From Chloroflexota bacterium (GTDB lineage Bacteria > Chloroflexota > Dehalococcoidia > SZUA-161): 40,435 nt of DNA. The notes below the pieces were generated by a model. It did not search any database, was not told the DNA's origin, and worked only from the letters and a program-made list of their open reading frames with translations. Location of the stretch: the NCBI GenBank assembly GCA_034189725.1, contig JAXHUK010000026.1, positions 1-40,435 of the forward strand, written 5' to 3'. A program made the position numbers and the translations under genes. Below, piece by piece: positions 2,433-38,211 of the stretch (position 1 is its first letter; each line of letters begins with the position of its first letter).

Positions 2433-2438
2433 GAAGAA

Positions 2439-3058: not shown

Positions 3059-3089
3059 ATATCAGGGAAATCTTCAGCGAATTGCTTGA

Positions 3090-3197
3090 CTTCATAGATA
3101 CCCATCTACCCCGAAAGCCAAACTCATCGACCAAATAGTCTACAAGCTCTACGGATTGACTGAGGATGAGATAGCGGTGGTGGAGGGTAGGGCTTAG
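3090..3197 (+). pseudogene. Stub resembling the extreme C-terminus of an RM methyltransferase/type IIG enzyme
   Basis: A short frame ends ...KLIDQIVYKLYGLTEDEIAVVEGRA then TAG at 3195-3197. The ID-x-VY-x-LYGLTEEEI-x-VE pattern is the classic C-terminal tail of such enzymes. An in-frame stop lies only about 35 codons upstream. Confidence 0.4.
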
Positions 3198-3237
3198 TAC
3201 ATTCCCCTAGATGCTCAAAATGGTAATCGTCACCGGA

Positions 3238-13442: not shown

Positions 13443-15260
13443 ATGAAAATAAGATCCATGGAGTTGGTCGACTTTAGCCCAATCAAGCATCTGCAGATTG
13501 ATGACATGGGAGACACGATAGTCATTGCAGGGGCAAACGGTTCAGGAAAAACAAGGTTGAAAGATGCAATTGTTGCTACATTGGAGGGCAATGCCTTGAT
13601 GAACATGGTAATAGAAGCAACTAGGTCAGAAGAAGAGGATGAAAAGTACTTCAATGGAAAGACTATCAAGATAGAGAAAGGTATACAGAATGATGTTTTG
13701 AATAACTACATAAACAGCCGAAAGTCTGGTGCGGGGCGATACGTTGGTTCTTTGGTCCAAATCGATTCCAATAGAGACGTAGAGAAGCTTTCATACAACG
13801 CTGTCAATTGGCTAGGAGGCGACCCAGATGACGTAGAATCGGCTGGCAAATTCTACTTCAGTCCTTTCATAAACAGATGGCAAGACTTCGTTAATTACAT
13901 TCATCAGAAAACAGCTGCCAGAGATAAGAAAATTGCTGAGGCGGTTAAGGCAGAGCCAAGCAAGATTGGCGATGAGTGGCTGCGAGAACATCCGGATCCA
14001 CTTGACAAGTATAAAGATATCTTCAAAAAAGCCTTGCCGGGCAAGGAGTTGATGAATATTGATCCAGCAAGACCTCGCGAGTTTCGGTATAAGGACGAAT
14101 CGGGGCAAGAATTGAATTTCCATAGGCTAAGTTCGGGAGAAAAGGAAATAGTCAGGGTTCTATTCGATGTTGCAAGAAAAGACATTCGACATTCCATTGT
14201 GATTGTGGATGAACCAGAACTGCATCTGCATCCCACACTTGCCTTTCAGTTGATCGAATCCCTGAAAGCCATGGGAGACCACACGAATCAATTCATATTC
14301 CTAACTCATTCATCGGATTTGATCACAACGTATTACTCGACTGGCGATGTGTACTTCATTGATTCACTCCAAGATGGCACAAACCAAGCACATCGCTTGA
14401 AGGACCTAGTCGATAAACGTCAGGATCTAGTCCCTCTTATTGGCCAAAACATAGGTCTCTTTGCTGTCGGGAAGAAACTTGTGTTTGTGGAAGGTGAATA
14501 CTCAAGTATAGATCGCCTGACCTATCAGAGAATTGCGCAAACAATAGACCCAGAAATCAGAATAATCCCAGCTGGGTCAGTTCTCAACATAATTACCTTA
14601 AGCAGCATAGAAGAGCAGATCAGACAATCGATATTCGGAATTGAACTATATATGGTAAGGGACCGTGATGGTCTTGAATCAAAACAGATCGCATCGTTGG
14701 AGAAGAATGGCAGGATTAGGTGTCTGAAGCGACGACATCTAGAGAACTACTTCCTAGATGAAGAGGTCCTATTTGAAGTAGCGCAGAAGCTCTACACCAC
14801 CAGCAAATTCCCCAACTTGTCACAAGAGGTGATAAAGAACAGCATACTGAAAATAGCTCAAGGTTCGTTGGGTTACAACATATATAAAAACTCAAAAGAG
14901 TATCTGATGCTCAATCATTTTCTAAAGGCACCAGCAGTCAAGTCGGTGGAGCAATTGAGCGTGGATGAGATCAAATCCACAATAGTTAAGGAGATCACGA
15001 ACAATGCAGAGCAGATGGCATCAGGGCTCACGCGAAGCTTTGTCGAAGACTGGCTAAACAAAGAGGAAGCCGCTCTGAATAACAAGCTCACGAATGGTCA
15101 ATGGATAAACGATTACCAAGGGAAATACATATTCAGCAAAGTATGCGCAGATGTCCTGAAAGAAGATCAAACTAAAGTTCGACATGCCTATGTGGACATT
15201 GCCCTAACTAGCAAGCCAAAAGCAATTCAAGATATCATTGACATCTTCAAGGGAATGTGA
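13443..15260 (+). CDS. Fused ABC/AAA-type ATPase + DUF4435 (TOPRIM-like) protein; PARIS (AriA-AriB fusion)-like defence candidate
   Basis: Walker A GANGSGKT (about 13528-13555), signature-like LSSGEKE, Walker B IVIVDEPELHLHP and H-loop FLTHS. The C-terminal half has KLVFVEGE (14481-14498) and VRDRDG (14655-14672), then RRHLENYF, which matches the DUF4435/TOPRIM pattern. By eye the region is more A+T-rich than its neighbours. Confidence 0.7.
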   Translation: MKIRSMELVDFSPIKHLQIDDMGDTIVIAGANGSGKTRLKDAIVATLEGNALMNMVIEATRSEEEDEKYFNGKTIKIEKGIQNDVLNNYINSRKSGAGRYVGSLVQIDSNRDVEKLSYNAVNWLGGDPDDVESAGKFYFSPFINRWQDFVNYIHQKTAARDKKIAEAVKAEPSKIGDEWLREHPDPLDKYKDIFKKALPGKELMNIDPARPREFRYKDESGQELNFHRLSSGEKEIVRVLFDVARKDIRHSIVIVDEPELHLHPTLAFQLIESLKAMGDHTNQFIFLTHSSDLITTYYSTGDVYFIDSLQDGTNQAHRLKDLVDKRQDLVPLIGQNIGLFAVGKKLVFVEGEYSSIDRLTYQRIAQTIDPEIRIIPAGSVLNIITLSSIEEQIRQSIFGIELYMVRDRDGLESKQIASLEKNGRIRCLKRRHLENYFLDEEVLFEVAQKLYTTSKFPNLSQEVIKNSILKIAQGSLGYNIYKNSKEYLMLNHFLKAPAVKSVEQLSVDEIKSTIVKEITNNAEQMASGLTRSFVEDWLNKEEAALNNKLTNGQWINDYQGKYIFSKVCADVLKEDQTKVRHAYVDIALTSKPKAIQDIIDIFKGM

Positions 15261-15682: not shown

Positions 15683-16000
15683 GTGCAAACGCAAGGGTAT
15701 GTGATTCTCACCTTTGAATTTCGTAAAAGCGGCAGGCGATGGACTGCCTATTGCAGAGAGCTTGGCACGGCAACATTCGGGCGATCCCTTACCGACGCTG
15801 AGAATAAACTAGACGAGGCAGTCTTGCTACACTTAAACACCCTTGAAGATGTCGGAGAACGTGAACGGTTCTTCAAAGAGCACGACTTAAGGTTCTATGA
15901 GCACAAGCCCGCAAAGAATACTACCATAAGCGTGCCCCTCAACGAGAACATCTTAATCCGCACGCGAATCCAGCCCGTACGAGAGTTGGTTCCTGCCTAG
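15683..16000 (+). CDS. hicB: HicB-family antitoxin
   Basis: GTG start 5 nt after GGGAGG. The translation YVILTFEFRKSGRRWTAYCRELGTATFGRSLTDAENKLDEAVLLHLNTLED fits the HicB N-terminal fold pattern. Confidence 0.75.
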   Translation: MQTQGYVILTFEFRKSGRRWTAYCRELGTATFGRSLTDAENKLDEAVLLHLNTLEDVGERERFFKEHDLRFYEHKPAKNTTISVPLNENILIRTRIQPVRELVPA

Positions 16001-16009
16001 TATCCGCTC

Positions 16010-16264
16010 ATGTATACCAAAGTTCCTGCCATTTCTGGCAAGCAACTGATAAGGCTCCTACAGAAAGACGGCTGGAACATCGCAAGAAAATCCAACCACG
16101 GCATTGCCCTCACTAAGTCTTTCGCAGATCGCACCAGGGTCACAGTTGTTCCCAGCACGCGTGCATCCCTCGATACTGGTACACTAGCAGCTATCCTTGG
16201 CCCAAAACAAACAGGTATTGCTAAAACAGGCTTACTCGAACTCATCAACAAGTACGGGTTGTGA
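16010..16264 (+). CDS. hicA: HicA/YcfA-family mRNA interferase toxin
   Basis: 84 aa containing ISGKQLIRLLQKDGWNIARKSNHGIAL...VTVVPSTRASLDTGTLAAIL, which is the HicA/YcfA pattern. Confidence 0.8.
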   Translation: MYTKVPAISGKQLIRLLQKDGWNIARKSNHGIALTKSFADRTRVTVVPSTRASLDTGTLAAILGPKQTGIAKTGLLELINKYGL

Positions 16265-20020: not shown

Positions 20021-20383
20021 ATGCACGCCAACGAAGAATCAGCTGTGATTCGGGAAAAAGCGCAAAATAAGCAGGTTGGCCTGATAAGAATAGCCCAATT
20101 CATGGCAATTCTCTGGGTTATTCTGTCACTCGCTGACGCCGGTATTACCTACATTTGCCTGAAAGACGCCACAAATATAGAAGGAAATCCTTTTGCCAGA
20201 GCATTACTTTCACATGGTGAGGCACTATTCTATGGGGCAAAGCTAGCTATTACTCTTGGCGTGGGGGCAGGCTTTCTGTGGCTATCAAACAGGACACCGT
20301 ATTTGAAGTTAATGATCGTCTGCCTGACACTGCTACTGGTCATGTTTACCGCTGTGCTGGTTAACAATATACTGCATCTATAA
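20021..20383 (+). CDS. Small integral membrane protein, DUF5658-like
   Basis: 120 aa with 3-4 TM helices. The motif ADAGITYICLKD...IEGNPFARAL is typical of DUF5658. Confidence 0.7.
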   Translation: MHANEESAVIREKAQNKQVGLIRIAQFMAILWVILSLADAGITYICLKDATNIEGNPFARALLSHGEALFYGAKLAITLGVGAGFLWLSNRTPYLKLMIVCLTLLLVMFTAVLVNNILHL

Positions 20384-20430: not shown

Positions 20431-21327
20431 TCAGCAACCAGGCGTTATCCCAAAGTCCACAGCGACTTTTTTCACATCCTCAAGCAATGAATATACATCA
20501 ACATTTGGCAACTCGCGCACAATCTTCCTGAATGGGTCATCAGTGCTCTCTTCACTCTTAAAGATATCCAGTAGATCATCAATACCATCACCGTTTTGAG
20601 AGTCCGGGGAGGATGACATGTCTACCGCCTCGGAAGCTTGGCCCTCTGCTTCGGCGGGTGGAGCAGGGTCCATCAACGCGGCATCGAAAATATCGTTTTC
20701 CGCTTCGAAAGGCGAAGCGGCATTGTCTATAAGCCCCGGATCAAATCCCTGGCTTCCTGCATCATAACCAGCCGGTGGTGCTATATCCCCAAGCCCCGGA
20801 GCAAATCCCTGGCTTCCTGCATCGTAACCAGCCGGTGGTGCTATATCCCCAAGTCCCGGGGCAAATCCCTGGCTTCCTGCGTCATAACCAGTCTGAACTA
20901 CAGCATCCTGAAGCCCCGCACTTTGCCCTTGTGCCACAATAGCATCTTGTGGTGCACTATCTACCACGTCAAGCTCTACCTGGCCATAAACCTCGTCTCC
21001 ACCCAGAGATATCCCTCCCAAATCCCCCGCCATCTGTCCGTGTTCTCCGTTAGCCGGTTCCTGATTTATCGCCTGCGGCTCAACAATGCTACTGTCGTAA
21101 CTGCCTAACTCAGCCATTGATAGTTCTGAAAACGATACTGGGATTCTCTCGTCCGCTTCGTCTCCAAACTGGCCAAGCTTCTTCTCTCCTGCAGCGAGGA
21201 ATTTTCCTACAGGATCAACCTCATCGACGACGGTGCTTCTATCACTTCTGCTTGAAAGTAAAGGGCTTTTCCACAACCGCCGCACCGATTGCAAACCACG
21301 TTGTACCGGTTCTAATTCTATCTTCAT
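20431..21327 (-). CDS. Acidic, low-complexity protein with three 20-aa tandem repeats; unknown function, downstream of arlJ
   Basis: 298-aa ORF containing (PP)AGYDAGSQGFAPGLGDIA three times. It is very D/E-rich with a C-terminal DDLLDIFKSEESTDDPF...LLEDVKK segment. The start codon is uncertain. Confidence 0.6.
   Translation of the reverse strand: MKIELEPVQRGLQSVRRLWKSPLLSSRSDRSTVVDEVDPVGKFLAAGEKKLGQFGDEADERIPVSFSELSMAELGSYDSSIVEPQAINQEPANGEHGQMAGDLGGISLGGDEVYGQVELDVVDSAPQDAIVAQGQSAGLQDAVVQTGYDAGSQGFAPGLGDIAPPAGYDAGSQGFAPGLGDIAPPAGYDAGSQGFDPGLIDNAASPFEAENDIFDAALMDPAPPAEAEGQASEAVDMSSSPDSQNGDGIDDLLDIFKSEESTDDPFRKIVRELPNVDVYSLLEDVKKVAVDFGITPGC
20731..20893. repeat. Tandem repeat, 60-bp unit, about 2.7 copies (intragenic)
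   Basis: The units start at 20731, 20791 and 20851 with only a few substitutions and an exact 60-bp period. Confidence 0.9.
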
Positions 21328-21665: not shown

Positions 21666-23189
21666 CTACATAGCGGACATCGAACCGAATATGCTGTCTG
21701 CAGCGATGGGTACTACAACCATCACTGCCCCGGAAGAGCCTAGAGTCAAAGCGAGGAAACTAAAGAATTTATACTTATTGCCACCATCAGCGGCGGCGGC
21801 GGCGAACGCAGTCGTCAGTGACAGGACGATTATACAGGGGAGAACGACAGTTTGCAGAAACTCAATGCCCTCAAAGCTGAATGTGAACATATTACTCGCC
21901 ATTTCCTGTGCTTCAACAACACTTTCCGTGTATACATTTTCAAGTACTTCGCCGAACATCAACAATACCTGCACCACGAATGACAGCAAACCGACAATAG
22001 CTATATGCATAGCAATAGCCAGGTACCCAAATGATGCCGACACCTGACTCCTCTTGGCACGTAGAAAATCAAGCATGGTTGCTACTATAGAGGAGCGAGA
22101 CCCTACCTCCTCGGGATCGCCACCCAACCTGTTAGCATCATTGAACATCTTCACACTTCGGTATACCGTTTCACTGCCTGTCTCCAGAGAAAAGCGCTGC
22201 CAGCATATATCGGGTTGCAGCCGGGAGTCCAGCCTGGCGCTTAGCCTCGTAACATCTGCCGCCAGGTTCGCTGTCGACCTCAGGTCCAACCTGCTCAGAG
22301 CAGTAGAAACTGTTAATCCGATCGCCGACGCCACGTTCCCCAGTGACCTCAAAAAGATGCTAATATCAGCATCTTTCTTCTTCACCGCCTTGTCAAATAA
22401 CATACCAGCTACACCTACAGGAAACATGAGTGCTGATGAGATAATGAGAGCCCATCCTATCCCCATTCCAGCTACCAAAACAACGATAAAACCGATGGCG
22501 GCTGCAGGTAATAGAATTCGAGCCAGCCGACGTGTCCTCTCGTAGCTAGTACAGTACCAGGCGGGATTATGGACCCTCACCTCCTTGGGTGCTACCCTGA
22601 AAATCATCCAGGATCCCATTGCAGCTACACAAATAGTAACACCAACGATTATGATGGTGAATGATTTTGCTACCGGGTAGATAAGCATGGAGACCGCAGC
22701 AACCATCACAATCAGGGCTGCAGACACAATGAGGGAAGCATAGCCTTCAGTCCACTTCCTCAGCGATTCCACATCGCGTTCATATTCATTCTGAAATGAC
22801 TCGGCCTGTATCTTTGCCTCCTGAGCCAGGAAGTCAGCCTCTGCTTCTCCTGAACCGAGGGAGCTCGCAAGACGCAACAGTAGACTTTTGACCACATCAT
22901 TATCAGCGGATTCTCCCACGAGACGACTGGCCACAGCATAATCATATCGCATTTGCTTCGCCAGGGTGTGGATATCCTCAAAATAGTGCGCTGAGGTACA
23001 GGGGAGCTGACTGGCAAACTCAAATATCTGGCTGCGTGGAATACCTGCTGCAGCTATAGACGACATATATGCCAGTTGGTAGAACAGGTCAAAACTGAGA
23101 TAGTCACTACCTGCAATGCCTTTTTTAAAGGACTCTTCTTCAGAAGAGTCCTTCCTGCCGCGCTTTAGCGAGAACTTTGAGAAGTTCAT
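21666..23189 (-). CDS. arlJ: Archaellum membrane platform protein ArlJ/FlaJ (T2SS-F/TadC superfamily)
   Basis: 507-aa polytopic membrane protein with two cytoplasmic helical domains. The N-terminal FDLFYQLAYMSSIAAAG motif is typical of FlaJ. It overlaps the arlI 3' end by 50 nt. Confidence 0.8.
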   Translation of the reverse strand: MNFSKFSLKRGRKDSSEEESFKKGIAGSDYLSFDLFYQLAYMSSIAAAGIPRSQIFEFASQLPCTSAHYFEDIHTLAKQMRYDYAVASRLVGESADNDVVKSLLLRLASSLGSGEAEADFLAQEAKIQAESFQNEYERDVESLRKWTEGYASLIVSAALIVMVAAVSMLIYPVAKSFTIIIVGVTICVAAMGSWMIFRVAPKEVRVHNPAWYCTSYERTRRLARILLPAAAIGFIVVLVAGMGIGWALIISSALMFPVGVAGMLFDKAVKKKDADISIFLRSLGNVASAIGLTVSTALSRLDLRSTANLAADVTRLSARLDSRLQPDICWQRFSLETGSETVYRSVKMFNDANRLGGDPEEVGSRSSIVATMLDFLRAKRSQVSASFGYLAIAMHIAIVGLLSFVVQVLLMFGEVLENVYTESVVEAQEMASNMFTFSFEGIEFLQTVVLPCIIVLSLTTAFAAAAADGGNKYKFFSFLALTLGSSGAVMVVVPIAADSIFGSMSAM

Positions 23190-24924
23190 AAAAGTCGGTC
23201 ACTCCCTTGTCTTTATGGAGTTTTTCTAGTATCCTCTGCCTTCTCTCCACCGATGAATAGATTTGCCACTTGCGGTTGGATGGGATTCCATGCTTTGGCG
23301 CGAGCTTCTCTTCCAATAAAAAACTGTTCTTGTTCCCCACAAACTCGAACGTATCGTTCACTGAGTCCCAACGAAACACCTCGACAAAGGAGAAAATGTT
23401 GTCAACAGGATCATAACCTACGATTTCACTGATACTGGTTGCACGCCGGCCCTTTTTACCATTGGGCAACTTGACAGCGTTTTGGCATACCACCACGTTC
23501 AAATTGTCCATATAGGTCTTGGATACATTGATCGGAGGTCCGGTGAGACGCTGAATCAGTTTCTCAACATTGGAAGCGTGGAACGTACTCATCACCTGAT
23601 GGCCTGTCTGCATTGCGCCAAAAGCGATATTCCCTTCCTCGCCACGTATCTCACCTACAATTATTACATCAGGGCGCTGCCTCAAAGCAGCCTTTAATAG
23701 CTCGAACATGTTCACATTAGAAACTTTTTCTCCTGGTGCGGGATTTTTAGCTACCTCTCGCAGCCAATTCGAGTGAGGGACCTGAAGCTCCGGTGTGTCC
23801 TCTATGCTTATGATTTTGTGATTCGTTGGCATAAAGGCAGTCACTGCATTCATCAGTGTAGTCTTACCTGAGGCGGTCTCCCCAACGACAAACACATTCA
23901 TACCATCCTCGATCACCATGGAAAGATACGCAGCCATCTCATAGTTCAGGCTACCGAATTCAATAAGCTCCATGACACTTAGTGGCGTATCCGCAAATTT
24001 TCTGATGGTGAAATTGCTGCCACGCCTTGAGACCTCCCGACCAAAGACAATGTTAATACGAGAGCCATCAGCCAGAGTAGCATCCACGATCGGACTACGC
24101 AGCGTAACCGGTTTTTTTATCGACTCGGAAAGACGAAGCACAAACTCATCCACATCATCATGGGTTTCAAATGTGATGCATGATTGTACGCTCCTGAATA
24201 TCTTATGCTCAACGAATATGCCACCGACTCCGCTGCAACTAATATCCTCAATGTTAGAGTCTTGTATGAGCGGCTCCATGACTCCCATCCCCACCTTGTC
24301 TCTCACAATGATGTACTTTAACGCTTCAAGTTGATCGGGGGACACCTCGACCTTACTCTTTTTACTTATGCCTTTCCCCTTCTTTCCTTTCCCTTTTCCT
24401 TTATCACCTTTTCCACTACCATCATCATCTGCCGTAGATAAACTTGTGGAAGTACCATTACGGTGCACTGTAGTGACCTTATCTATCAACCGCAGAAGAC
24501 ACTCGGTTCGTTCTTCATCAGATTTTACATTGCTCAGGGCTTCAGCTTCATCGACCAGCCTATCCTCTACCTCATGAAGCACTACACTCATGTCCTGATT
24601 CATTCCCGGTTCAATCGGGATATAGAAAGGTCTGCCACCGCTGGAGTCGGAGTACATGTGAATGAAAATCTCTTCCCCGACAGGGAAGATAAGGTTAAGT
24701 TGCTTACGATCACCATCAGACCGCTTGAGCTTGGATACGTACTCCGGGACCGCTACCTCATCGAGTGGTACCTGACACAGATATTCCCAGAGATGCTTGT
24801 ACTTCTGGCTTGCCGTCTGCATCTCTTCAGGAAGCAAGAGAAACAACTCATCACTTTCATCCGGCATGCGCCTGGCATTACCTGCATCGTCGTTTTTCCC
24901 AAATGGTACTACAGTCCTTGGCAT
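23140..24924 (-). CDS. arlI: Archaellum assembly/motor ATPase ArlI/FlaI (T2SS-E/VirB11 superfamily)
   Basis: Walker A VGETASGKTT, Asp box IISIEDTPEL, Walker B RQRPDVIIVGEIRGEE and His box TGHQVMSTFHA. The long N-terminal domain matches FlaI architecture. Confidence 0.88.
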   Translation of the reverse strand: MPRTVVPFGKNDDAGNARRMPDESDELFLLLPEEMQTASQKYKHLWEYLCQVPLDEVAVPEYVSKLKRSDGDRKQLNLIFPVGEEIFIHMYSDSSGGRPFYIPIEPGMNQDMSVVLHEVEDRLVDEAEALSNVKSDEERTECLLRLIDKVTTVHRNGTSTSLSTADDDGSGKGDKGKGKGKKGKGISKKSKVEVSPDQLEALKYIIVRDKVGMGVMEPLIQDSNIEDISCSGVGGIFVEHKIFRSVQSCITFETHDDVDEFVLRLSESIKKPVTLRSPIVDATLADGSRINIVFGREVSRRGSNFTIRKFADTPLSVMELIEFGSLNYEMAAYLSMVIEDGMNVFVVGETASGKTTLMNAVTAFMPTNHKIISIEDTPELQVPHSNWLREVAKNPAPGEKVSNVNMFELLKAALRQRPDVIIVGEIRGEEGNIAFGAMQTGHQVMSTFHASNVEKLIQRLTGPPINVSKTYMDNLNVVVCQNAVKLPNGKKGRRATSISEIVGYDPVDNIFSFVEVFRWDSVNDTFEFVGNKNSFLLEEKLAPKHGIPSNRKWQIYSSVERRQRILEKLHKDKGVTDFYELLKVLAKARQEGLF

Positions 24925-24933
24925 AGTTAACCT

Positions 24934-25644
24934 TTACGCCCTCGCTTTAGAATACGGTATCACTTTAATGCCCCACCCCGGCTCAACATCGAACGAGATA
25001 ATATTACCTGTGCTTTTCTGAGCCCCCCGCACCTTGGATACCTCCAATATTTTTATCATCTTGCTCCCCATAGTCTCCATACGTAATCTCAGGTGAGCAT
25101 CACACATGGAACCGATCCTGACCATGACATTCTCATCAAAAGCATAAGAATGAGCGACACAGACAACGCTCATCCCTTTATCACAAAGCCCTTTACAATC
25201 CTCAAAAAAGGTGAGAACTTCCTCTGTAGAAGCATGCGTCAAGAAGTAGGTGATGGAATCGACTATCGCTAAATCAATGCCCTTGCCGGAACAACTATTG
25301 AGTATGGGCAGCAGTCCTTCATCCAGATTTCGTCTCGTTTTCTTCGTATCCAGGGGATATATTCGCAATCGAGTTAACAGCAGGTAATCCAGAACATCCA
25401 GGTTAAGGCTCTGCATCTGACTTACCAGGCTCTTCATCGTATTCTCAGTAGTAAACACCATAACTCTTAAACCTAACCGCAGTGAGCCCCAGATCATCTG
25501 CTGGGTCAGCACAGATTTACCAGAATCAGGCTGCCCTTCGATGAGGCACAATGACTTCAGCGGTATTCCTCCGCCCATCTTTTTATCCAGTTCATCATTC
25601 CCTGTCGAGAATGTTCTGACATCCTCCGTTTTTAGCCCGCCCAT
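24934..25644 (-). CDS. arlH: ArlH/FlaH KaiC/RecA-like ATP-binding protein
   Basis: 236 aa with ELDKKMGGGIPLKSLCLIEGQPDSGKSVLTQQM, a KaiC-like Walker A. It lies immediately upstream of arlI, as in archaeal loci. The RBS is AGGAGA. Confidence 0.82.
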   Translation of the reverse strand: MGGLKTEDVRTFSTGNDELDKKMGGGIPLKSLCLIEGQPDSGKSVLTQQMIWGSLRLGLRVMVFTTENTMKSLVSQMQSLNLDVLDYLLLTRLRIYPLDTKKTRRNLDEGLLPILNSCSGKGIDLAIVDSITYFLTHASTEEVLTFFEDCKGLCDKGMSVVCVAHSYAFDENVMVRIGSMCDAHLRLRMETMGSKMIKILEVSKVRGAQKSTGNIISFDVEPGWGIKVIPYSKARA

Positions 25645-25653
25645 ACCAGTCTC

Positions 25654-26175
25654 CTAACCTTGAAACTGCGCCGAGACTACCACACCATTAGGACTGGACA
25701 GAATCACTCGATTGATGGTGTCCACCCCCGGTGATGGATTCAATTTCAATCTCATCAGCGCTACCTCGCCGGGATTGAGGATATCCGGCTCAAATACCTC
25801 CGGATCCTCTGTAGTATCATCCGCGTAGATGGTTATAACCGCCCATTCGTTATCAGAAGGAATGCTCTCCTCTGTATATGAAAGAGAGCCAACGTGGTAG
25901 GTCGTATTTCCATAATACTGAACCAGAACGTCCCATTGGGAAAACTGGGCAAGATGTACCTTGCCAACGTTCTGAACCAGCACATCTACAAAAGGCGCTG
26001 TGTTATTTGCGTTAACTATATCGATATCAGTCCTGAGTATATCCTCTGCTTTATCCGTCATTAATTTCCAGGATTGACAGGTGGAGTCCAGAGAATCAAA
26101 GGATACTTGGGACCAGGACACTACCGCCACCATCATCAAGACCACAACAAACAGGGTTACCAACACATTGCTCAT
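25654..26175 (-). CDS. arlG: ArlG/FlaG-like protein (N-terminal TM + archaellin-like beta domain)
   Basis: 173 aa with a single N-terminal hydrophobic helix VLVTLFVVVLMMVAVVSW followed by a beta-rich domain. The F/G assignment rests only on the Euryarchaeota-type gene order F-G-H-I-J. Confidence 0.55.
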   Translation of the reverse strand: MSNVLVTLFVVVLMMVAVVSWSQVSFDSLDSTCQSWKLMTDKAEDILRTDIDIVNANNTAPFVDVLVQNVGKVHLAQFSQWDVLVQYYGNTTYHVGSLSYTEESIPSDNEWAVITIYADDTTEDPEVFEPDILNPGEVALMRLKLNPSPGVDTINRVILSSPNGVVVSAQFQG

Positions 26176-26180
26176 TTGCT

Positions 26181-26696
26181 TTACATACTAAAGTAATAAT
26201 CATCGGATATCCCATTAGGAATGAGAACCTTGACATTGTATTCACCGGGCGATAATGTTTCATCGTAGCTAACCTCTATCATCACGGTCGTTGCAGTCCC
26301 CCACTCATCCCCATTCTCTATTTCCTCATCCCAGCGAGGGTATTCACCATCAGCATAGTCGACATGAGGAATCCAGGCCCAAACTGTATCGTTGCCGCTG
26401 AGAAGAACGTCGCAACGCTCGATATCATCCACAGGTTCACTGCCAACATTCTTCACCCAGATAAAAATATCGAAGTTGCTATCCTCGTTAGTATCCTGCC
26501 ATTGCCCGTCGTTATCTAACTCTCCTGCAGCATGAATGATCTCGATATGACTTCTGATGCGTTCGTTCATCCGTGCAGAGGCGCCACCCAGCGCCCCGCT
26601 AGTCGTCGTAACCGCTGGATACACCGCATTGATCACCAGCGTCACACATACTACAGCAGCCACTACCAATAAAATCGTGGTTAATGCTTTATCCAT
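26181..26696 (-). CDS. arlF: ArlF/FlaF-like protein (N-terminal TM + archaellin-like beta domain)
   Basis: 171 aa with the N-terminal helix ALTTILLVVAAVVCVTLVINAVYPA followed by a beta-rich domain. It overlaps the upstream gene by 8 nt. The assignment is by synteny. Confidence 0.55.
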   Translation of the reverse strand: MDKALTTILLVVAAVVCVTLVINAVYPAVTTTSGALGGASARMNERIRSHIEIIHAAGELDNDGQWQDTNEDSNFDIFIWVKNVGSEPVDDIERCDVLLSGNDTVWAWIPHVDYADGEYPRWDEEIENGDEWGTATTVMIEVSYDETLSPGEYNVKVLIPNGISDDYYFSM

Positions 26697-27651
26697 GTTT
26701 GGACTTCCCGCTGTTTAATCCACCATTGAGAAGCTGCGTAACCACAACTGACTCCAGGGCTCCACTACGATAGCGCAGCAAGCTATCCAGCTCAATAAGA
26801 AGCTGGATACTAGCAGATGCTGACATATCCTCATTCTCGGGAGAATCCTCGCCCCGGTTGTTGTCACTGTAGAGGTCAGCCAGCAGCAGCATAGTCTGTT
26901 TCAAGCGTGATGGAACATTGCCCGTTATATCATATATCTCCACCACCTTAGTTACCCTGCTTTTACCAACCTGATTGACAGCACGTGACAGCCACTGTGC
27001 TAACACTGATACCGTTAACAGATCAATAACTTGATCGTCCCCGGTCTCTGAAGGGCCCCCATTTCCACAGCTACAACCAGAGTCAGGTTCACCCTGTTCA
27101 TTCAAGCTATCAACTAAACCAAGCTCCAGGAAATTTGATCCTGATCCGCGACTGCCCTTCTTAGCAGTCACACCCAAATCTGTTGGCGGCGAGACATCTC
27201 CCGGACTTTGCGCGGACGGTTCATCAATACCACCAACAAAACCTGGCATCACAGGAATAACCGATGGCATTTGAGCAGCTTGTGGTGGGATTGCAATCTC
27301 CCCAGGAAAATCCATCGCTGGCATTTGAGCAACCTGGGGGGGAACTCCACCACCCAAATTCATCGCCGGCGTTTGAACAACCGGGGGTGGAGCAATTCCA
27401 CCACCCAAACTCGTATCCAGAACTACGGCGGGTTGTCGCTGCCCCAAGGCGTCTGCGGCACCGGTGGCACCTGAAAGAGGTCCAGGTGCTGATGAGACTA
27501 TGGTACCACTACTATCCAAGGGAGGAATGTAGGGATACCCACCACCAGTAGCCAGTGTATCCTTAATATCGAGCAGCACCGACTGTATCTGGTTCTTAAG
27601 CACCTTCATTTCCTCTTCGAGTGCCTCGATTCGCTCTTCCATGCTGCCCAA
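26689..27651 (-). CDS. ArlC/D/E (FlaC/D/E)-like archaellum accessory protein
   Basis: N-terminal coiled coil MEERIEALEEEMKVLKNQIQSVLLDIKD. A central Pro/Gly/Met-rich degenerate repeat has PPxxAQMPxx three times. The C-terminal region LLTVSVLAQWLSRAVNQVGKSRVTKVVEIYDITGNVPSRLKQTMLLLADL resembles the FlaD/E domain. The start is TTG at 27651 or ATG at 27642. Confidence 0.6.
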   Translation of the reverse strand: MGSMEERIEALEEEMKVLKNQIQSVLLDIKDTLATGGGYPYIPPLDSSGTIVSSAPGPLSGATGAADALGQRQPAVVLDTSLGGGIAPPPVVQTPAMNLGGGVPPQVAQMPAMDFPGEIAIPPQAAQMPSVIPVMPGFVGGIDEPSAQSPGDVSPPTDLGVTAKKGSRGSGSNFLELGLVDSLNEQGEPDSGCSCGNGGPSETGDDQVIDLLTVSVLAQWLSRAVNQVGKSRVTKVVEIYDITGNVPSRLKQTMLLLADLYSDNNRGEDSPENEDMSASASIQLLIELDSLLRYRSGALESVVVTQLLNGGLNSGKSKHG

Positions 27652-27670
27652 TCCTGTTTCTTAATACCAT

Positions 27671-27713
27671 GGAGGTCGCTGCGGGGACGGCTGACTGGGT
27701 GACAGCGACCTCC
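27671..27713 (-). promoter_or_regulatory. Intercistronic stem-loop between archaellin and accessory genes (attenuator, terminator or processing site candidate)
   Basis: Perfect 11-bp GC-rich stem ggaggtcgctg / cagcgacctcc with a 21-nt loop. It lies in the 98-nt gap between the arlB stop and the next start. Confidence 0.45.
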
Positions 27714-27749
27714 TAATCAACTCAAGCACGTATATAAGTTACAACCTCG

Positions 27750-28364
27750 CTAGTTCAGAATCATTTGATTGTCGAGGTTGGCCGGGGTTGTCCTCTCAAT
27801 GACGAGTGTGCTTCCTACCTGAGGCATAACCTCAATGGTGAAGGTGTGATACGTCCCTATAGTCTCACCAACACCTGTCAGATCCACCGTGAGCTTGAAC
27901 ATCTCACCCGCTTCCAGCAGTTCATCATTGTCTCGCTTGCCCAGCTGCGTCTTGCTCCAGGCCAAGTCATATGCGCTTGCACCCTGGCTGGTGTAGGATA
28001 TAATGGCAACGTTGGAGCTACCAGTGTCAGCTAGCCCATCACTGTCAATATCATTGGGACATGTAAGGTCGATCGCCTCACCCTTAAGGGCATTGGTTAC
28101 AGTGAACGTCACATTGCCAACTGCAGTTGCATTGGCTTGCTTGGCGGCTACTACACTACCGACCAGCTCCAGCGTAGATCGAGTCTCCTCAATTCCTGCG
28201 TAGATGGCCTCCTGCCCCTTCTGGGACGAGAATATCCCCGCTGACAACACCGTGTACGCAAAGACCGAAGCAACTACTACGAATGCAATCAAAATGATCG
28301 CCGTCTCCAAGCCAGTGATGCCCCTCTCATCCCGCTGTGTCTTCCCCATGAACTTTTTCAACAT
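27750..28364 (-). CDS. arlB: Archaellin (archaeal flagellin ArlB/FlaB) with class III signal peptide
   Basis: ATG at 28364 follows AGGAGG. The N-terminus MLKKFMGKTQRDERG-ITGLETAIILIAFVVVASVFAYTVLSAGIFSSQKG matches the conserved archaellin prepilin-like N-terminus. The ORF stays open back to 28418. Confidence 0.88.
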   Translation of the reverse strand: MLKKFMGKTQRDERGITGLETAIILIAFVVVASVFAYTVLSAGIFSSQKGQEAIYAGIEETRSTLELVGSVVAAKQANATAVGNVTFTVTNALKGEAIDLTCPNDIDSDGLADTGSSNVAIISYTSQGASAYDLAWSKTQLGKRDNDELLEAGEMFKLTVDLTGVGETIGTYHTFTIEVMPQVGSTLVIERTTPANLDNQMILN

Positions 28365-28450
28365 TTGTTGACCTCCTGTAATTTTTTCGGCCCACATATT
28401 CAGTATGGCAACCTGCATGTGGCCTCTGCAGACTGCATCTGATATCCTCT

Positions 28451-28720
28451 TTAGTCCTCAACCATGCCTATCACCTCCCCTTGACCTTCACTTTCCCTCG
28501 TCTTATCGTAGAGAAAGGCCAAGACTTCTTGTTCCCGGTATCTCCAATCGCCACGACCCCCCACCTTATAGGCAGGGAGCTTTCCGCTTCGACTCCAGCG
28601 CCTTACTGAGCTGACATGCACCCTGAGAAAGTCTGCAACTTCATCGCATGTCATTATCCGTTTATCTTCCCGCTGATCTCTACCAGTCTCTTTATTTGTT
28701 CCACTCTCCAACCTGCTCAC
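28451..28720 (-). CDS. Excisionase/MerR-like helix-turn-helix DNA-binding protein, first gene of the archaellum operon
   Basis: HTH pattern MTCDEVADFLRVHVSSVRRWSRSGKLPAYKVGGRGDWRYREQEVLAFL. Candidate starts are GTG at 28720 (after GGGAAGGGGG), ATG at 28654 and TTG at 28759. Confidence 0.75.
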   Translation of the reverse strand: MSRLESGTNKETGRDQREDKRIMTCDEVADFLRVHVSSVRRWSRSGKLPAYKVGGRGDWRYREQEVLAFLYDKTRESEGQGEVIGMVED

Positions 28721-28976
28721 GGCATCGCCCCCTTCCCACCTACTGTAGTACTCGAGCAATAAAACGGGTTGTTCTTAAACTGCATCTTACCTACTTTTAC
28801 CTGACTTCCAGACCTCAAAGAATAGTTCATATTTGACCAGAGAATACGAATTCGCAACTTTAGCGAGCAATAGGAAACTTTCTAGAGCAATCATATATTC
28901 TGTACCCATAAGGAACAATCACCCAACTGTGCAGAGCGGGAAAGTAAATAGTCATGTCTATTATGCTGGTACAAAT

Positions 28977-33052: not shown

Positions 33053-33730
33053 CTATCGTTTTTCTGCTTGTCGAGGCTCACTACTATCTTCATTGCTCGA
33101 TGGATCAACCGTTTTACCGCCAAAAAAGCGGGACAGTATACTAGTAACCCCTTTCACAGAACCTTGCGAGGTTTCCTCTTTATTCATAGCAATCTCTTCC
33201 TGGCACGGCTGACGTACAGATTGCAACTCGGCCATAACCGCCTCCTCACGTAAGCGGGCCTCAGAAACTTCAGCATGATACTTCTGTATCTGGCCTTCTT
33301 GCCTCTCAATCTTTTGCTCCAAACGAAGCTGGTATTCCTTATTCTGCATTAATAGTCTCCGTCTTTCCAAAGCCCTTTCCACTCTTAACGCAAGATCATC
33401 GAGATTAAACGGTTTCGGTAAATAATCATAAGCACCAAGCTTCATAGCTTCGACAGCAATCTGCAAGTCAGCAACCGCAGTCAACATAACAACAGCAGTA
33501 TCAGGATGATCAGTCACTATTTTAGGCAGCGTCTCTATCCCCGATAGCCCCGGCATCTTGATATCCATAATCACCAATTCGAAGTCCTTCATGAAGGCCT
33601 TCCAAATAGCCTCTCTACCATCAGATGCACACTCACAGCTATACCCTTCTGCCTGTAATTTGCGTGATAGTATATCCCTTATCGGCTCTTCATCATCAAC
33701 TATCAATATTTTTCCTCTCGATTGGCTCAT
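33053..33730 (-). CDS. Stand-alone response regulator (REC + coiled-coil C-terminal region)
   Basis: REC motifs ILIVDDEEPIRD, VIMDIKMPGLSG and YDYLPKPF. The C-terminal 90 aa or so are coiled-coil/low-complexity with no recognisable output domain. Confidence 0.9.
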   Translation of the reverse strand: MSQSRGKILIVDDEEPIRDILSRKLQAEGYSCECASDGREAIWKAFMKDFELVIMDIKMPGLSGIETLPKIVTDHPDTAVVMLTAVADLQIAVEAMKLGAYDYLPKPFNLDDLALRVERALERRRLLMQNKEYQLRLEQKIERQEGQIQKYHAEVSEARLREEAVMAELQSVRQPCQEEIAMNKEETSQGSVKGVTSILSRFFGGKTVDPSSNEDSSEPRQAEKR

Positions 33731-33756: not shown

Positions 33757-36700
33757 TCAGACCGCTCGGACTATGCGCTGTTCTCCCAAAACCAGGGGAA
33801 TATCTACAACAAAGGTTGCCCCTTTGCCTAGTTTGCTCCTCGCATATATATGACCACCATGCTCCTGGATAATCCCAAAACAGATACTGAGCCCCAGACC
33901 TGTCCCCTTCCCCACCTCCTTGGTGGTAAAGAAGGGATCGAATATTCTATCTCGGTCATCCTCCGATATGCCCGGACCATCATCGGCAAAGGTCACGCGT
34001 ATCATCTTGCTCATCTTCTGGGTTTTGATGGAGAGCTTGCCTCTCTCCCGGAACTCAGTGATCGCCTGTTCAGCATTGGTGATAATGTTGACAAAGACCT
34101 GCTGCATCTGATGGAAATCGGCCATTATCATTGGTAGCTCAGGATCCAGTTCCGTCATCATCTCGATATTTTTACCTCTAAGACGGTACGAGTGAAGTTC
34201 CAGACTCTCCAGAATTGCTTCATTTATCGAGATGAGGCGTTTATTGGGTTTCTCTCTACGGGCAAAGGAAAGTAACTTGCCGGTGATCTTAGTAGTACGC
34301 TGAGCCTCTCTGTAGATTATATTCACATCTCGCTTTATAGACTCATCCACATCATCCCTCGCGGTTAAAAACTGAGCGAATGCTTGTACCGCAGTAAGCG
34401 GATTATTCAACTCATGCGCGACACCTGCGGCCAGCTCACCAACGGCAGCCAATCGCCCTGCAAGTTGTAACTGCTCTTCCAGCCGCTGTCTCTCTTCCTC
34501 GGCCTCTCTGCGTTCAGTGATATCACGTGTCACTCCCAACATCCCAACGGGCTTGTTCGCTTCATTGCGCAGAAGCGTTACTTTTACTTCAGTCCAGATC
34601 GTTGAACCATCTTTGCGAAACTGCTCCACCTCTAGCACACGCGACCTGAACAGGTCCTTATCTTTCATCTTTTCTATGGCGGCTTCTTCTGCAAGAACCT
34701 TCAGGGCATCTTCAAGTGATCCCGGGGGCAGCATTCCCTCTAACCTTAACGCCAACGCCTCTTCAACACTGTAACCCAACAAACGTGTAATCGAGGGGCT
34801 AAAATAGGTAAATCGCAATTTCATATCACAGATCCATATCACATCTGTCACATTCTCGGCAAGCAAACGGTAGTGCGCCTCACTTTCCTGCAAAGCCTGC
34901 TCAGCCTGCTTTCTCTCGGTAATATTGCGGAAATTGACAATTATGCCATCAACCTTTTTCTCATTGAGCAGATTACTTCCAACACTCTCGATCACCCGCC
35001 ATGTACCATCTTTATGCAAAAAACGGCCTTCCGTGGTTACGGCCCGCCCTGGACTATAGGCAAATCCACGGAAAACGCTCCTAAACAACTTTATATCGTC
35101 CGCATGAAGTAATTCAATCACTACTCTGCCAATTAATTCCTCAGCTTTATAACCCAGTACTCGTTCGACAGATGAACTGACATAGCGGACGATCCCCTTA
35201 TCGTTTAAAATCGCAATAGCATCCAGAGAGTTCTCAATAAGCGCCCGGAAATACTCCTCGCTTTCCTTCAGCGCCTCCTCCGCCCGCTTGCGCTCTGTGA
35301 TATCTCGGGCGATTCCAATGAACTCAACTTTTTCTCCCTGTCTAACCCTGTGAAGGGTTACTTCAACAAACGCAATCGTCCCATCTGGCTTATTAAGCTC
35401 AATCACCTCTCTATCGGGGTCCATTCCCCCAGCGCTAACCTCTACCATCTGCAACGCCTTCGCCAGATGGCACGGAGAAATGATGCCGAGGTTCTGAAAA
35501 CCACTCCCAAGTACTTTTTCTCTCTTATATCCAATCATGGCTTCCGTCGCTTCGTTTATATACAATATCATCCCGTCAGAATCGCAGACAAATATAGATT
35601 CAGGGCTATTCTCCATATAGGTCTTCAGCTTTTCCTCTGACTCTCGAAGCGCTTGCTCCGCCTGCATACGTACCACTGCTTTGCCAATCTGGATAGCCAT
35701 AATCTCAAGCGCCTCACGCGCAAACATCGGCAACTCGTCTATCGTATAGGATGCAGCGTTTAGAGAGCCAACAACCCTATCCTCATCAAATACCGGAATG
35801 ATACTGATAGCGCGCAATCCCTCTTGTCGCTCAGCCTCGGCCATATTGACATCCAGATTATCATGCCTGGTATGAACTGGTTTGCCCTCGTTAACCAGAC
35901 GTGCATTGTCCGAATCTGCACTAAAGCGCGTTGCGGCGTCTACAAAAGCAGCAGGTAATCCTTTATGAAATACGAGTTCGAAATCCCCCGATGTCCTGTC
36001 AACAAGATAGATACCGCCGCAATCCATATCCGAAACATCAAGAGCTGCCTCCAGACAAAGACGTAGTCCGTCACTAAGCCCACTTGCAGTATTAAGTGAC
36101 ATATCCAGATCGCGTTGCACCTGAATCAAATGCTCCGCCCTCTTGCGCTCTGTCACATCGTGCAAGTTGATTACAATACCTTCCACAGCCGGATTATTGA
36201 GCAAATTGTTCCCATTCACTTCAAGAGTACGCCACGAACCATCTCTGTGCATAATACGCGCCTCTACGTGTATAACAGCATCTTCATTGTGAACTAACTG
36301 CGTAAATCTGGTGGTTGCCACATGAAGATCATCCGGATGAACATGTTCAAATATACTGCAGCCCAAGCGTTCCTCCGGTATAAATCCCAGCATACGTACT
36401 ATGGACGGGCTTTCGTAAAGTATGTGCCCTTCGGTGTCTACAAAGAGCGTGGCATCCCATGAGTTCTCAATGAGTGCACGGAAATACTGCTCCTGTCGAT
36501 GCAATTTACTCTCCGCCTTCTTGCGCTCAGTGATGTCCTGAATTATGACTATCTCTCCAAGTATCTTCCCATTTGGCCCTTTGATCCCTGATGCCGAATA
36601 GGTACAAGGTACCTTCTCCCCTCTACCATTCACCAGCTCCAATTCCATAGCTGACACTGATATACCAGTTTGTAGACGATTTTTCGATCGTTCCAGGGCT

Positions 36701-37854: not shown

Positions 37855-38128
37855 CCCTTCGTGATGTAATATGTTCGTTCACCCTTGTACCTACAGGAAT
37901 TTTTATACCCTCAACGTCCGAGTATGAACTACTGGTAGATTCATCCAGAAAGCGCAGAACATCCTCGGATTGGTACCTCCTGTCACCTCGGGATCCGACA
38001 CGGTAGAATTTCAGCATTCCCTTATCGCTCCAACGCCTCACAGTACATATGCTTACCTGCAAGAAGTCAGCCACCTGGCGCGTCGTCAACATACTGTCGA
38101 GCGATGTCTTGTTAACAGTCTGCTTCAC
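37814..38128 (-). CDS. Excisionase/MerR-like HTH DNA-binding protein, paralog of 28451-28720; first gene of the kinase operon
   Basis: LTTRQVADFLQVSICTVRRWSDKGMLKFYRVGSRGDRRYQSEDVLRFL matches 26 of 48 positions in my manual alignment to the other HTH. The start is GTG at 38128 (7 nt after GGGAGG) or GTG at 38137. Confidence 0.78.
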   Translation of the reverse strand: MKQTVNKTSLDSMLTTRQVADFLQVSICTVRRWSDKGMLKFYRVGSRGDRRYQSEDVLRFLDESTSSSYSDVEGIKIPVGTRVNEHITSRRDAEHGRKKQNRTQ

Positions 38129-38211
38129 CAATCTCACCTCCCATATTTATAACGAACTAGTGGATACCTACAATAACCTATCAAACATTAGCACACGTCA
38201 TATCATGTACA

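Follow-up and report, generated by a model that had tools for sequence, protein, structure and literature searches.

An arl2-type archaellum gene cluster in a Dehalococcoidia-related Chloroflexota genome

Does a run of archaellum-like genes on a bacterial contig specify a genuine archaellum, and does it belong to the chromosome in which it was found? This question was raised by contig JAXHUK010000026.1 of the Chloroflexota metagenome-assembled genome (MAG) GCA_034189725.1, whose 40,435 nt are the window analyzed here. Reports from 2023-2025 described archaella in Chloroflexota and demonstrated that they function (Lim et al. 2023; PMC12488501). Archaellum clusters occur in 243-244 of 3,780 Chloroflexota genomes surveyed, and for Litorilinea aerophila swimming was shown and a 2.7 Å cryo-EM structure of the filament obtained (PMC12488501). 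Since such archaella are already published with structure and motility, this locus is a further case of a known phenomenon.

Gene order and identity of the archaellum components

As originally predicted, the minus strand between 21666 and 28759 carries eight co-directional ORFs, none of them interrupted. The tiny gaps and overlaps claimed for them exist from p320, the gene in the ArlC/D/E slot, to arlJ: coordinates give overlaps of 8 nt (p320/arlG) and 50 nt (arlI/arlJ, similar in relatives) and gaps of 5 nt (arlG/arlF) and 9 nt (both arlF/arlH and arlH/arlI). The first two junctions are wider, with 32 nt between the upstream helix-turn-helix (HTH) gene and arlB, or 86 nt with the corrected arlB start, and 98-107 nt between arlB and p320. 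Profile HMM searches identified archaellin, ArlG, ArlF, ArlH, ArlI and ArlJ.

The pre-archaellin ArlB, the filament subunit (27750-28364, minus strand), matched PF01917 (E 1.2e-23) and the N-terminal domain model TIGR02537 of NCBIfam. Its maximal ORF starts at 28418; judged from orthologues, the true start is likely 28364 (M19). Cleavage of the class III signal peptide, MLKKFMGKTQRDERG, is predicted just ahead of I34, numbered on the maximal ORF. In the alignment to the top PDB match, 9I5H/9SIE/9SII (E 5e-36), this Ile falls on the first residue of the mature chain of L. aerophila archaellin; entries 9SIE and 9SII were deposited for the L. aerophila archaellum with PMC12488501. The expected archaellin N-terminus, RG followed by ITGLETAIILIAFVVVASVFAYTVLSAG, is present, with I34 at the predicted mature start. 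The locus holds a single archaellin copy, compared with 2-5 in relatives. Directly upstream of arlB lies a gene (28451-28759, minus strand) for an HTH_17/excisionase-BldC-like small DNA-binding protein (PF12728 HTH_17, E 1.5e-14), also similar to TIGR01764 and the BldC family in NCBIfam. Only L001, L004 and L017, the closest loci, keep it there, and its product is probably a clade-specific transcriptional regulator. A paralogue of this protein is encoded at 37814-38137.

The stator genes had been called ArlF-like and then ArlG-like, an assignment that profile matches to the PDB reversed. The upstream gene (26181-26696, minus strand) encodes the stator filament protein ArlG, with a TM helix at the N-terminus followed by an archaellin-like beta-sandwich (NCBIfam ArlG, E 5e-12; PF01917, E 1.4e-8), and its family profile retrieved FlaG from the PDB (5TUG/6PBK, E 2.4e-11) and no FlaF. 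The downstream gene (25654-26175, minus strand) encodes the stator cap or envelope-binding protein ArlF, composed of an N-terminal TM helix and an Ig-like domain (PF22201 FlaF_Ig-like, E 9e-5); here the family profile matched FlaF in the PDB (4P94/4ZBH, E 3.6e-12) and FlaG far more weakly (E 0.013). The two proteins are paralogous (hhalign 97.6%). The proposed order of HTH, archaellin, C/D/E slot, F, G, H, I and J thus stands except for the stator pair, which runs arlG then arlF, that is, in the arl2-type G-F order and not in the F-G layout regarded originally as Euryarchaeota-type.

Of the motor genes, arlH (24934-25644, minus strand) encodes the KaiC-like ATP-binding regulator of ArlI, identified by NF004723 FlaH (282 bits, cutoff 194) and by its top PDB match, FlaH 4YDS (E 6e-42), while the NCBIfam equivalog model scored 206 bits, short of its cutoff of 215. 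Its Walker A, GQPDSGKS, bears out the predicted KaiC-type P-loop, and Walker B reads LAIVDS. The hexameric motor/assembly ATPase ArlI (23140-24924, minus strand) passed the NF058587 FlaI equivalog cutoff (647.9 bits, cutoff 550), while TadA reached 157 bits and the NCBIfam bindosome/TadA/VirB11 models 175 bits at most; membership in bacterial Tad or type IV pilus families, named in advance as a refuting outcome, is thus not what these scores return. Against PDB entries, ArlI scored 409 bits with FlaI 4II7, 284 with the archaeal GspE-like 2OAP and 143 with bacterial CpaF. The full secretion-ATPase motif set foreseen for it was found, namely Walker A (GETASGKT), Asp box (IISIED), Walker B (VIIVGEIR) and His box (GHQVMSTFH). 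The platform protein ArlJ (21666-23189, minus strand) is polytopic, as predicted, and matched NF004703 ArlJ/FlaJ (E 2.2e-111) over positions 23-501 of the 525 in the model, with 373 bits under a strict cutoff of 570; PF00482 T2SSF also matched.

Prepilin peptidases are usually encoded outside archaellum clusters. None of the PibD/PilD type was found in the 40-kb window, and the claim of a complete archaellum holds accordingly for the structural operon and not for its processing enzyme. Judged from sequence, the locus is a genuine, intact archaellum cluster of the arl2 type, comprising arlB, an ArlD/E-slot gene, arlG, arlF, arlH, arlI and arlJ.

Two genes for proteins with disordered linkers

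The soluble protein p320 (26689-27642, minus strand) was placed in the ArlC/D/E (or ArlX) slot by position and sub-threshold Arch_fla_DE similarity. Its maximal ORF (26689-27651) encodes 320 aa, and orthologues make 27642 (M4) the likely true start. An AF2 model features an N-terminal coiled-coil helix (residues 2-34) and a C-terminal five-helix bundle (211-309); the middle is a ~175-aa disordered Pro/Gly-rich linker carrying in-frame tandem repeats. The protein itself had no match in Pfam or NCBIfam, and neither fold nor sequence neighbours were found in the PDB. Within its family (853 clusters at 50% identity), Arch_fla_DE was the only recurring model, sub-threshold each time (2/13 and 1/40 members), and the family consensus reached 17.3 bits (E 0.0045; GA 21). 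Members occupy the same position in the archaeal (Methanotecta) loci L025, L026 and L039. The ArlC/D/E-like label originally given to 26689-27651 was hence not confirmed, its basis being this position and similarity; p320 is probably a divergent ArlD/E-like cytoplasmic scaffold.

Downstream of arlJ, a further minus-strand gene (20431-21327) encodes an acidic protein of 298 aa (pI 4.05; NCBI hypothetical protein MDY6892324.1) that has no Pfam or NCBIfam match. Its N-terminus is helical and contains a DPVGxFL motif, its ~190-aa disordered linker has three 20-aa tandem repeats, and its C-terminal motif of 45 aa (DDLLDIFKSE...LPNVDVYSLLEDVKKVA) is conserved; a low-confidence AF2 model likewise has helical termini and a disordered centre. 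An ORF bearing this motif lies directly 3' of arlJ on the same strand in 21/21 Chloroflexota loci with sequence there. The motif HMM scored E 1e-15 to 2e-19, including the held-out L010 and L023, and E 1e-8 in the distant L041/L042, whereas no other among 5,929 ORFs did better than E 2.8. Co-transcription with arlJ is uncertain in this genome because the spacer measures 338 nt, versus ~4-35 nt in relatives. The protein is probably an additional lineage-wide accessory. The published accounts of Chloroflexota archaella consulted, PMC12488501 included, do not mention the gene; its product may be an as yet undescribed candidate accessory of these loci, and the gene may be the one new item in this locus.

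Genomic context, origin and function

The source being a MAG, archaeal and bacterial DNA could have been joined in one contig during assembly or binning. The cluster lies mid-contig, however, with bacterial-type genes on both sides, as announced originally (MutS domains I-V, LipA, an OmpR-type two-component system, MacB/HlyD, a DUF3160 lipoprotein and a pseudouridine synthase). Its gene order is shared by ~20 Dehalococcoidia/Chloroflexota MAGs, the nearest being SZUA-161, Kmv37 and binchicken MAGs, and flank synteny (HTH, DUF5658, RsuA, RR, HTH2) extends to L001, L004 and L017, which come from independent assemblies. Dehalococcoidia contigs as long as 2.1 and 2.8 Mb carry close ArlI homologues. 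In GC, GC3 and codon usage the cluster cannot be told apart from its flanks (codon-usage correlation r = 0.87 between arl genes and flanks; 0.90 in the flank-versus-flank control), and the nearest archaeal ArlI is just 52% identical, as opposed to up to 73% for Chloroflexota homologues. We saw no sign of the assembly join that had been named beforehand as refuting; syntenic bacterial flanks and matching codon usage indicate that the contig is not chimeric, and the artefact is effectively refuted. No tRNA, integrase or flanking repeat was found at the cluster. One related locus, L040, is degraded by an IS insertion and is without arlI/J.

The horizontal transfer proposed originally is upheld by the archaellum-specific family matches and by the recurrence of cluster and bacterial flanks. 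Methanotecta, which have the arl2 order, are the proposed donors of Chloroflexota archaella (PMC12488501). Consistently, the archaeal Ca. Methanospirareceae contig L025 has an identical gene order, including a p320-family gene between arlB and arlG, with identities of 52% (ArlI), 51% (ArlH), 37% (ArlJ) and 39% (ArlB), and a neighbor-joining tree placed it among or beside Chloroflexota lineages. It is very probable that this arl2 operon of a Dehalococcoidia-related chromosome has been passed down vertically within that lineage since it was acquired long ago from Methanotecta-like Euryarchaeota.

With gene identities, order, conservation and native genomic context established, the homologous systems of archaea and L. 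aerophila suggest how the products would work. A peptidase of the PibD/PilD type, with its gene at another place in the genome, would cleave pre-archaellin after RG; an ArlI hexamer on the ArlJ platform, modulated by ArlH, would spend ATP on filament assembly and then on rotation, and ArlG and ArlF would form the stator, which has to hold on to the bacterial wall. As ArlCDE or ArlX in archaea, p320 would act as cytoplasmic scaffold; the HTH protein probably regulates transcription, and the post-arlJ protein could be a tether close to the membrane that docks onto a motor component through its C-terminal helices.

The same genes might instead build a type IV pilus, archaeal-type or Tad-like, that does not rotate and serves adhesion or uptake, since the type IV filament superfamily includes ArlI, ArlJ and archaellins; two Anaerolineales genomes are reported to have gained an archaeal pilus-type locus in a second, separate transfer (PMC12488501). 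This is highly improbable, given the ArlI equivalog score, the joint presence of the archaellum-specific ArlH, ArlF and ArlG, and an archaellin closest to the L. aerophila archaellum subunit. Nor does the presence of a cluster guarantee its use, because no filaments were seen on cultured SAR202 strains that carry such operons (PMC12488501). An intact cluster that is silent, conditionally cryptic or heading to decay would also fit the single archaellin, the enlarged post-arlJ spacer and the fate of L040. Against this, all eight or nine ORFs run to full length, their catalytic motifs are intact, translational coupling is tight, ArlI is strongly conserved across lineages (52-73% identity), and L. 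aerophila itself seemed non-motile until grown on soft agar (PMC12488501). We favor an operon predicted to build a rotary archaellum and consider disuse unlikely.

Comparison with known systems

The Tad pilus (CpaF/TadA, TadB/C) is likewise an archaeal-derived bacterial type IV filament system with a related ATPase fold. It was rejected as an identity for this locus, where FlaI outscores CpaF, ArlH/F/G are present, and Flp pilin, a TadB/C pair, secretin and TadZ are absent. Euryarchaeal arl1 clusters (Haloferax, Methanococcus, Pyrococcus) share the core ArlH/I/J motor, the ArlF/G stator and a soluble cytoplasmic accessory slot, filled there by multi-domain proteins without TM segments (PMC8978795). 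They differ in their F-G order, Pfam-recognisable FlaC_arch and Arch_fla_DE and CheF adaptor, whereas here the order is G-F and p320 falls under the Arch_fla_DE threshold; CheF is reported absent from Chloroflexota. Methanotecta arl2 clusters (L025; Archaeoglobus cited in PMC12488501) have the same order, p320-family gene included, in a host of the other domain. Archaeal p320 relatives are shorter (~210 aa), with linkers rich in Glu/Lys/Gln instead of Pro/Gly, and the archaeal post-arlJ protein, also acidic (147 aa), has no detectable homology to the bacterial family (E 7.6; hhalign probability ~1%).

Unlike published Chloroflexota archaella, this locus has no pilN or pilO-LysM nearby, a single archaellin and an HTH_17 gene upstream, and its host is Dehalococcoidia-related whereas L. 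aerophila belongs to Caldilineales. With L. aerophila and the SAR202 'Ca. Lucifugimonas marina' it nevertheless shares the component set, the arl2 G-F order, a peptidase outside the locus and the monoderm Chloroflexota host phylum, and its ArlB has the same cleavage site as L. aerophila archaellin, before I-T-x-L-E-T-A-I.

Composition and gene order of the archaellum operon

Eight co-directional ORFs on the minus strand make up the archaellum cluster (21666-28759), as the original prediction described: an HTH_17 gene (28451..28759), arlB (27750..28364), a gene for a 320-aa protein in the ArlC/D/E slot (p320; 26689..27642), arlG (26181..26696), arlF (25654..26175), arlH (24934..25644), arlI (23140..24924) and arlJ (21666..23189). 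The tight spacing attributed to the whole set holds for the core genes, with an 8-nt overlap of the p320 gene and arlG, gaps of 5, 9 and 9 nt, and a 50-nt arlI/arlJ overlap that recurs in relatives, but not for HTH-arlB and arlB-p320, where gaps of 32-86 nt and ~100 nt, respectively, are ordinary intergenic distances.

Profile searches supported the proposed identities of the archaellin and of the motor proteins. The archaellin matched PF01917 (84.6 bits; GA 29.5) and TIGR02537 (34 bits; cutoff 20), with the bacterial archaellum of Litorilinea aerophila as its best solved-structure match (9I5H/9SIE/9SII, E 5e-36). Its predicted RG N-terminus is also in place: I34, directly after 'RG', lines up with the residue at which mature ArlB of L. 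aerophila begins. Orthologues set the real start of arlB at M19, which results in a class III signal peptide of 15 residues. ArlH was recognized by the FlaH subfamily model NF004723 (282 bits; cutoff 194), with FlaH 4YDS as the closest PDB entry (E 6e-42), and scored 206 bits with the equivalog model, just below its cutoff of 215. ArlI exceeded the cutoff of the FlaI equivalog NF058587 (647.9 versus 550 bits; next model, 175 bits) and retains the Walker, Asp-box and His-box motifs, all intact. ArlJ aligned nearly full-length to the FlaJ model NF004703 (E 2.2e-111), and FlaJ models were the only ones to match it; its score of 373 bits falls short of the strict equivalog cutoff (570), and it is 37% identical to the archaeal ArlJ of L025, a Ca. 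Methanospirareceae locus.

The two genes between p320 and arlH individually score under the NCBIfam equivalog cutoffs for ArlF and ArlG, and were assigned with family alignments for which ~20 related loci supplied the sequences. For the upstream 171-aa protein, the family profile matched FlaG crystal-structure sequences (E 2.4e-11) and showed no FlaF match, whereas for the downstream 173-aa protein it matched FlaF crystal-structure sequences (E 3.6e-12), with FlaG at just 0.013. The order is therefore arlG-arlF, and the F-G, 'Euryarchaeota-type' layout first proposed has to be abandoned: coordinates and F/G identification together reveal an arl2 organization, with arlG before arlF and an accessory gene between arlB and arlG. 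None of the window ORFs scanned encodes a prepilin or pre-archaellin peptidase (PibD/ArlK or PilD), a gene that normally lies outside the archaellum locus (PMC12488501). These data identify the locus as a genuine and intact archaellum operon of the arl2 type, in a bacterium related to Dehalococcoidia.

Relation to pili, to archaeal loci and to the host contig

We considered whether the cluster could instead encode a Tad, type IVa pilus or type II secretion system. With the corresponding models, ArlI reached 157 bits for TadA (cutoff 373), 66 for PilB and 61-67 for GspE, and this identity was rejected. Against solved structures, ArlI scored 409 bits with FlaI, 284 with an archaeal GspE-like ATPase and 143 with bacterial CpaF, and neither an Flp or major pilin nor PilM/N/O or a secretin is encoded in the window. 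The L025 locus shares the arl order of the window, and its ArlI is 52% identical to ours, as near as distant Chloroflexota lineages are to one another. In a neighbor-joining tree rooted on Nitrososphaerales, of limited sampling and bearing no support values, the Methanospirareceae ArlI fell among or beside the Chloroflexota sequences; this placement is consistent with the published sister relationship to Methanotecta, of which it is no independent test. A further archaeal ArlI homologue (L026:11273-15085) is 1270 aa long and carries an intein (weak Intein_splicing match), which interrupts the ATPase domain close to the equivalent of window residue 440.

An archaeal operon amid bacterial genes could also reflect a chimeric assembly. 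The flanks are bacterial, as originally described, with MutS (domains I-V), LipA, an OmpR-type two-component system, MacB/HlyD, DUF3160 and a pseudouridine synthase, and the exact ArlI sequence is deposited as MDY6892326.1 of a 'Chloroflexota bacterium' MAG. The gene order arlB-p320-arlG-arlF-arlH-arlI-arlJ is shared by ~20 Chloroflexota/Dehalococcoidia MAGs that represent GTDB species (ArlI identity 48-73%), and the nearest loci all belong to Chloroflexota/Dehalococcoidia MAGs. In the nearest relatives (L001, from SZUA-161; L004; L017), synteny extends to the flanking HTH, DUF5658, RsuA, response-regulator and second HTH genes, and Dehalococcoidia contigs 2.1 and 2.8 Mb long carry close ArlI homologues. 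The arl genes agree with the flanks in GC, GC3 and codon usage (r = 0.87, versus 0.90 in the flank-versus-flank control). No tRNA, integrase or Rfam element was detected and no direct or inverted repeat flanks the cluster; a mobile-element or RNA account of the borders was therefore dismissed. Sigma-70 promoter and terminator scans performed no better than on shuffled sequence. The archaellum cluster is thus native to the contig and not a chimera. Recurrent gene order, syntenic flanks, megabase contigs, matched composition and the lack of border elements collectively fit an old, ameliorated and now vertically inherited acquisition.

Several neighboring genes and related loci deserve mention. 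A paralogue of the HTH_17 gene upstream of arlB (37814-38137, minus strand) adjoins a gene for a 1365-aa multi-PAS/GAF histidine kinase (33757-37854, minus), beside which lies a response regulator with an unassigned C-terminal half (33053-33730, minus). In L004, a second HTH and a response regulator likewise adjoin the archaellum locus, and the paralogue, kinase and regulator may constitute a regulatory module for the arl operon. A long ORF that runs off the contig end (38512-40434, plus; 641 aa or more) opens with what resembles a receiver domain of response regulators and probably encodes a hybrid sensor kinase, which would bring the two-component systems near the archaellum locus in the window to three. 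A small DUF5658 membrane protein is encoded at 20021-20383 (plus), just beyond the gene that follows arlJ, a position that it keeps in L001, L002, L004, L005 and L017; in the distant L041 its gene sits ~4.5 kb upstream of arlB, a co-occurrence that could reflect shared ancestry or a functional link. Beside mutS, a low-GC island (~0.43) encodes a 605-aa fused AriA/AriB-like (PARIS) OLD-family ATPase (13443-15260, plus; PADLOC AriAB, E 1.8e-54), followed by two small ORFs that by eye resemble a HicB/HicA-type pair (15683-16261, plus); this is likely a defense island. Two further small adjacent ORFs of 81 and 127 aa (2433-3055, plus) look, by eye only, like a DUF433-type antitoxin and PIN-like toxin pair. 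Among the related loci, L040 has a DDE transposase insertion that separates its archaellin genes from the p320-family gene (2749-3804 and downstream) and lacks arlI/arlJ after arlH, and is a decaying bacterial archaellum cluster. L017 contains the HTH-arlB-arlB module twice with identical scores (211-2022 and 2780-4591), attributable to a recent tandem duplication or else to a repeat in the assembly.

Two candidate accessory proteins

The soluble p320 occupies the slot of ArlC/D/E in Euryarchaeota or ArlX in Thermoproteota, and such genes have been termed arlCDE homologues in Chloroflexota (PMC12488501). The protein itself had no Pfam or NCBIfam match, a PDB sequence-profile search with it found nothing, and NCBIfam models returned nothing relevant on 40 family members. 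Its orthologues are built alike, with a coiled coil at the N-terminus, a Pro/Gly-rich linker that is hypervariable, and a C-terminal domain of ~110 aa that is conserved. An AlphaFold2 model from a 40-sequence alignment shows a helix (residues 2-34) and a five-helix bundle (211-309), both confident, with ~175 residues of disorder between them; Foldseek retrieved generic helical bundles alone for this model (E > 1) and no significant PDB neighbor. Exhaustive profile searching expanded the family to 853 clusters at 50% identity. Across its members and consensus sequences, Arch_fla_DE was the sole recurring Pfam family, collinear and always sub-threshold (best, 17.3 bits; GA 21); FlaC_arch reached E 0.31. 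Two word-indexed profile searches mostly recovered close relatives annotated as 'hypothetical' and devoid of Pfam domains, plus one JGI entry named FlaD/FlaE. Archaeal ArlC/D/E sequences were also sought by tblastn of ArlI against PLSDB, which delivered pilus/Tad-type ATPases alone (at most 65% query coverage), and the archaeal GTDB loci L021 and L022 proved to be near-identical short Nitrososphaerales contigs. Members of the p320 family lie between arlB and arlG in the archaeal loci L025, L026 and L039, and p320 was therefore inherited together with the cluster. p320 is probably a very divergent ArlD/E-like scaffold, representing a family of the arl2/Chloroflexota lineage that is large yet missed by standard Pfam and NCBIfam models.

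The ORF directly 3' of arlJ on the same strand (20431-21327, minus) encodes an acidic, largely disordered protein of 298 aa (pI 4.05), with no Pfam or NCBIfam match and labeled as hypothetical at NCBI (MDY6892324.1). Its family is kept at that position in 21 of the 21 Chloroflexota loci with sequence there (L001:11183-11905, L004:13226-14068, L011:10426-10914, L041:14388-15023 and others). These proteins combine a short, membrane-proximal, basic or amphipathic N-terminus, replaced in some lineages by a TM helix, with a hypervariable, acidic or Pro-rich disordered linker (three 20-aa tandem repeats in the window) and a conserved helical motif at the C-terminus. An HMM of this ungapped 45-aa motif, built from 17 loci, detected all of its loci, including two held-out ones, at E 1e-15 to 2e-19, and the distant L041/L042 lineage at E 1e-8; the next best of 5,929 ORFs scored E 2.8. 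A single-sequence AlphaFold2 model of low confidence (pLDDT 47) lends weak support to helical termini and a disordered center. The gene lies 338 nt from arlJ in the window versus ~4-35 nt in relatives, and its operon membership is therefore less certain here. In-frame tandem DNA repeats give rise to repeated peptides in the disordered linkers of both proteins, with three 60-nt units up to 97% identical in the post-arlJ gene (20731-20910) and units of ~48-54 nt in that of p320 (27262-27412); linker length appears to change quickly in the two proteins.

An acidic 147-aa protein of like position and composition follows arlJ in archaeal L025 (6784-7227), and neither the motif HMM nor hhalign gave significant evidence of its homology to the post-arlJ family. 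Scanning metagenomes with archaeal ArlJ retrieved no additional archaeal loci, and a scan with the archaeal p320 subfamily recovered 12 contigs, none of them, like L039, long enough to reach arlJ. The post-arlJ gene goes unmentioned in the papers on Chloroflexota archaella consulted here. Positional and motif conservation make its product a candidate conserved accessory, and there is a real possibility, in our view slightly short of an even chance, that it is an undescribed, Chloroflexota-wide archaellum component. If so, it would show, alongside the divergent ArlD/E-slot protein, at which points the machine was adapted to the bacterial cell. More speculatively, it might be a tether or adaptor docking onto the motor (ArlH, ArlI, ArlJ or p320), and in that case might serve as a bacterial substitute for functions given in Archaea by CheF or the polar cap.

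Comparison with known bacterial archaella

The archaellum has long been regarded as an archaeal hallmark, which makes bacterial archaella a striking example of an entire machine passing from one domain to another. Archaellum operons were reported in SAR202 isolates in 2023, and complete clusters have since been counted in 243-244 of 3,780 Chloroflexota genomes (PMC12488501, Nature Microbiology, 2025), a survey that may already include this MAG. The same study described the arl2 order both in Chloroflexota and in the proposed Methanotecta donors, inferred transfer from the latter, determined the filament structure of L. aerophila at 2.7 A and demonstrated archaellum-driven swimming in L. aerophila alone among these bacteria (PMC12488501). 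Follow-ups from 2026 addressed envelope anchoring, for which a minority of genomes have PilN and PilO-LysM, and the co-distribution of bacterial archaella with F1 chemosensory systems. The central claim of a horizontally acquired archaellum in a bacterium is therefore correct yet not new, given the published surveys, structure and swimming. Experimental backing for the inter-domain transfer dates from 2023-2025, and the present locus contributes only one more example, from a Dehalococcoidia lineage. What retains interest is the unrecognized ArlD/E-slot family and the conserved post-arlJ gene, without a description that we could find in the literature; both bear on published open questions about motor scaffolding, anchoring and signaling coupling in bacteria without CheF. 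As local features, the locus encodes a single archaellin, whereas its relatives have 2-5, and has no pilN/pilO nearby. The HTH_17 gene upstream of arlB is a trait that it shares with its closest clade only.
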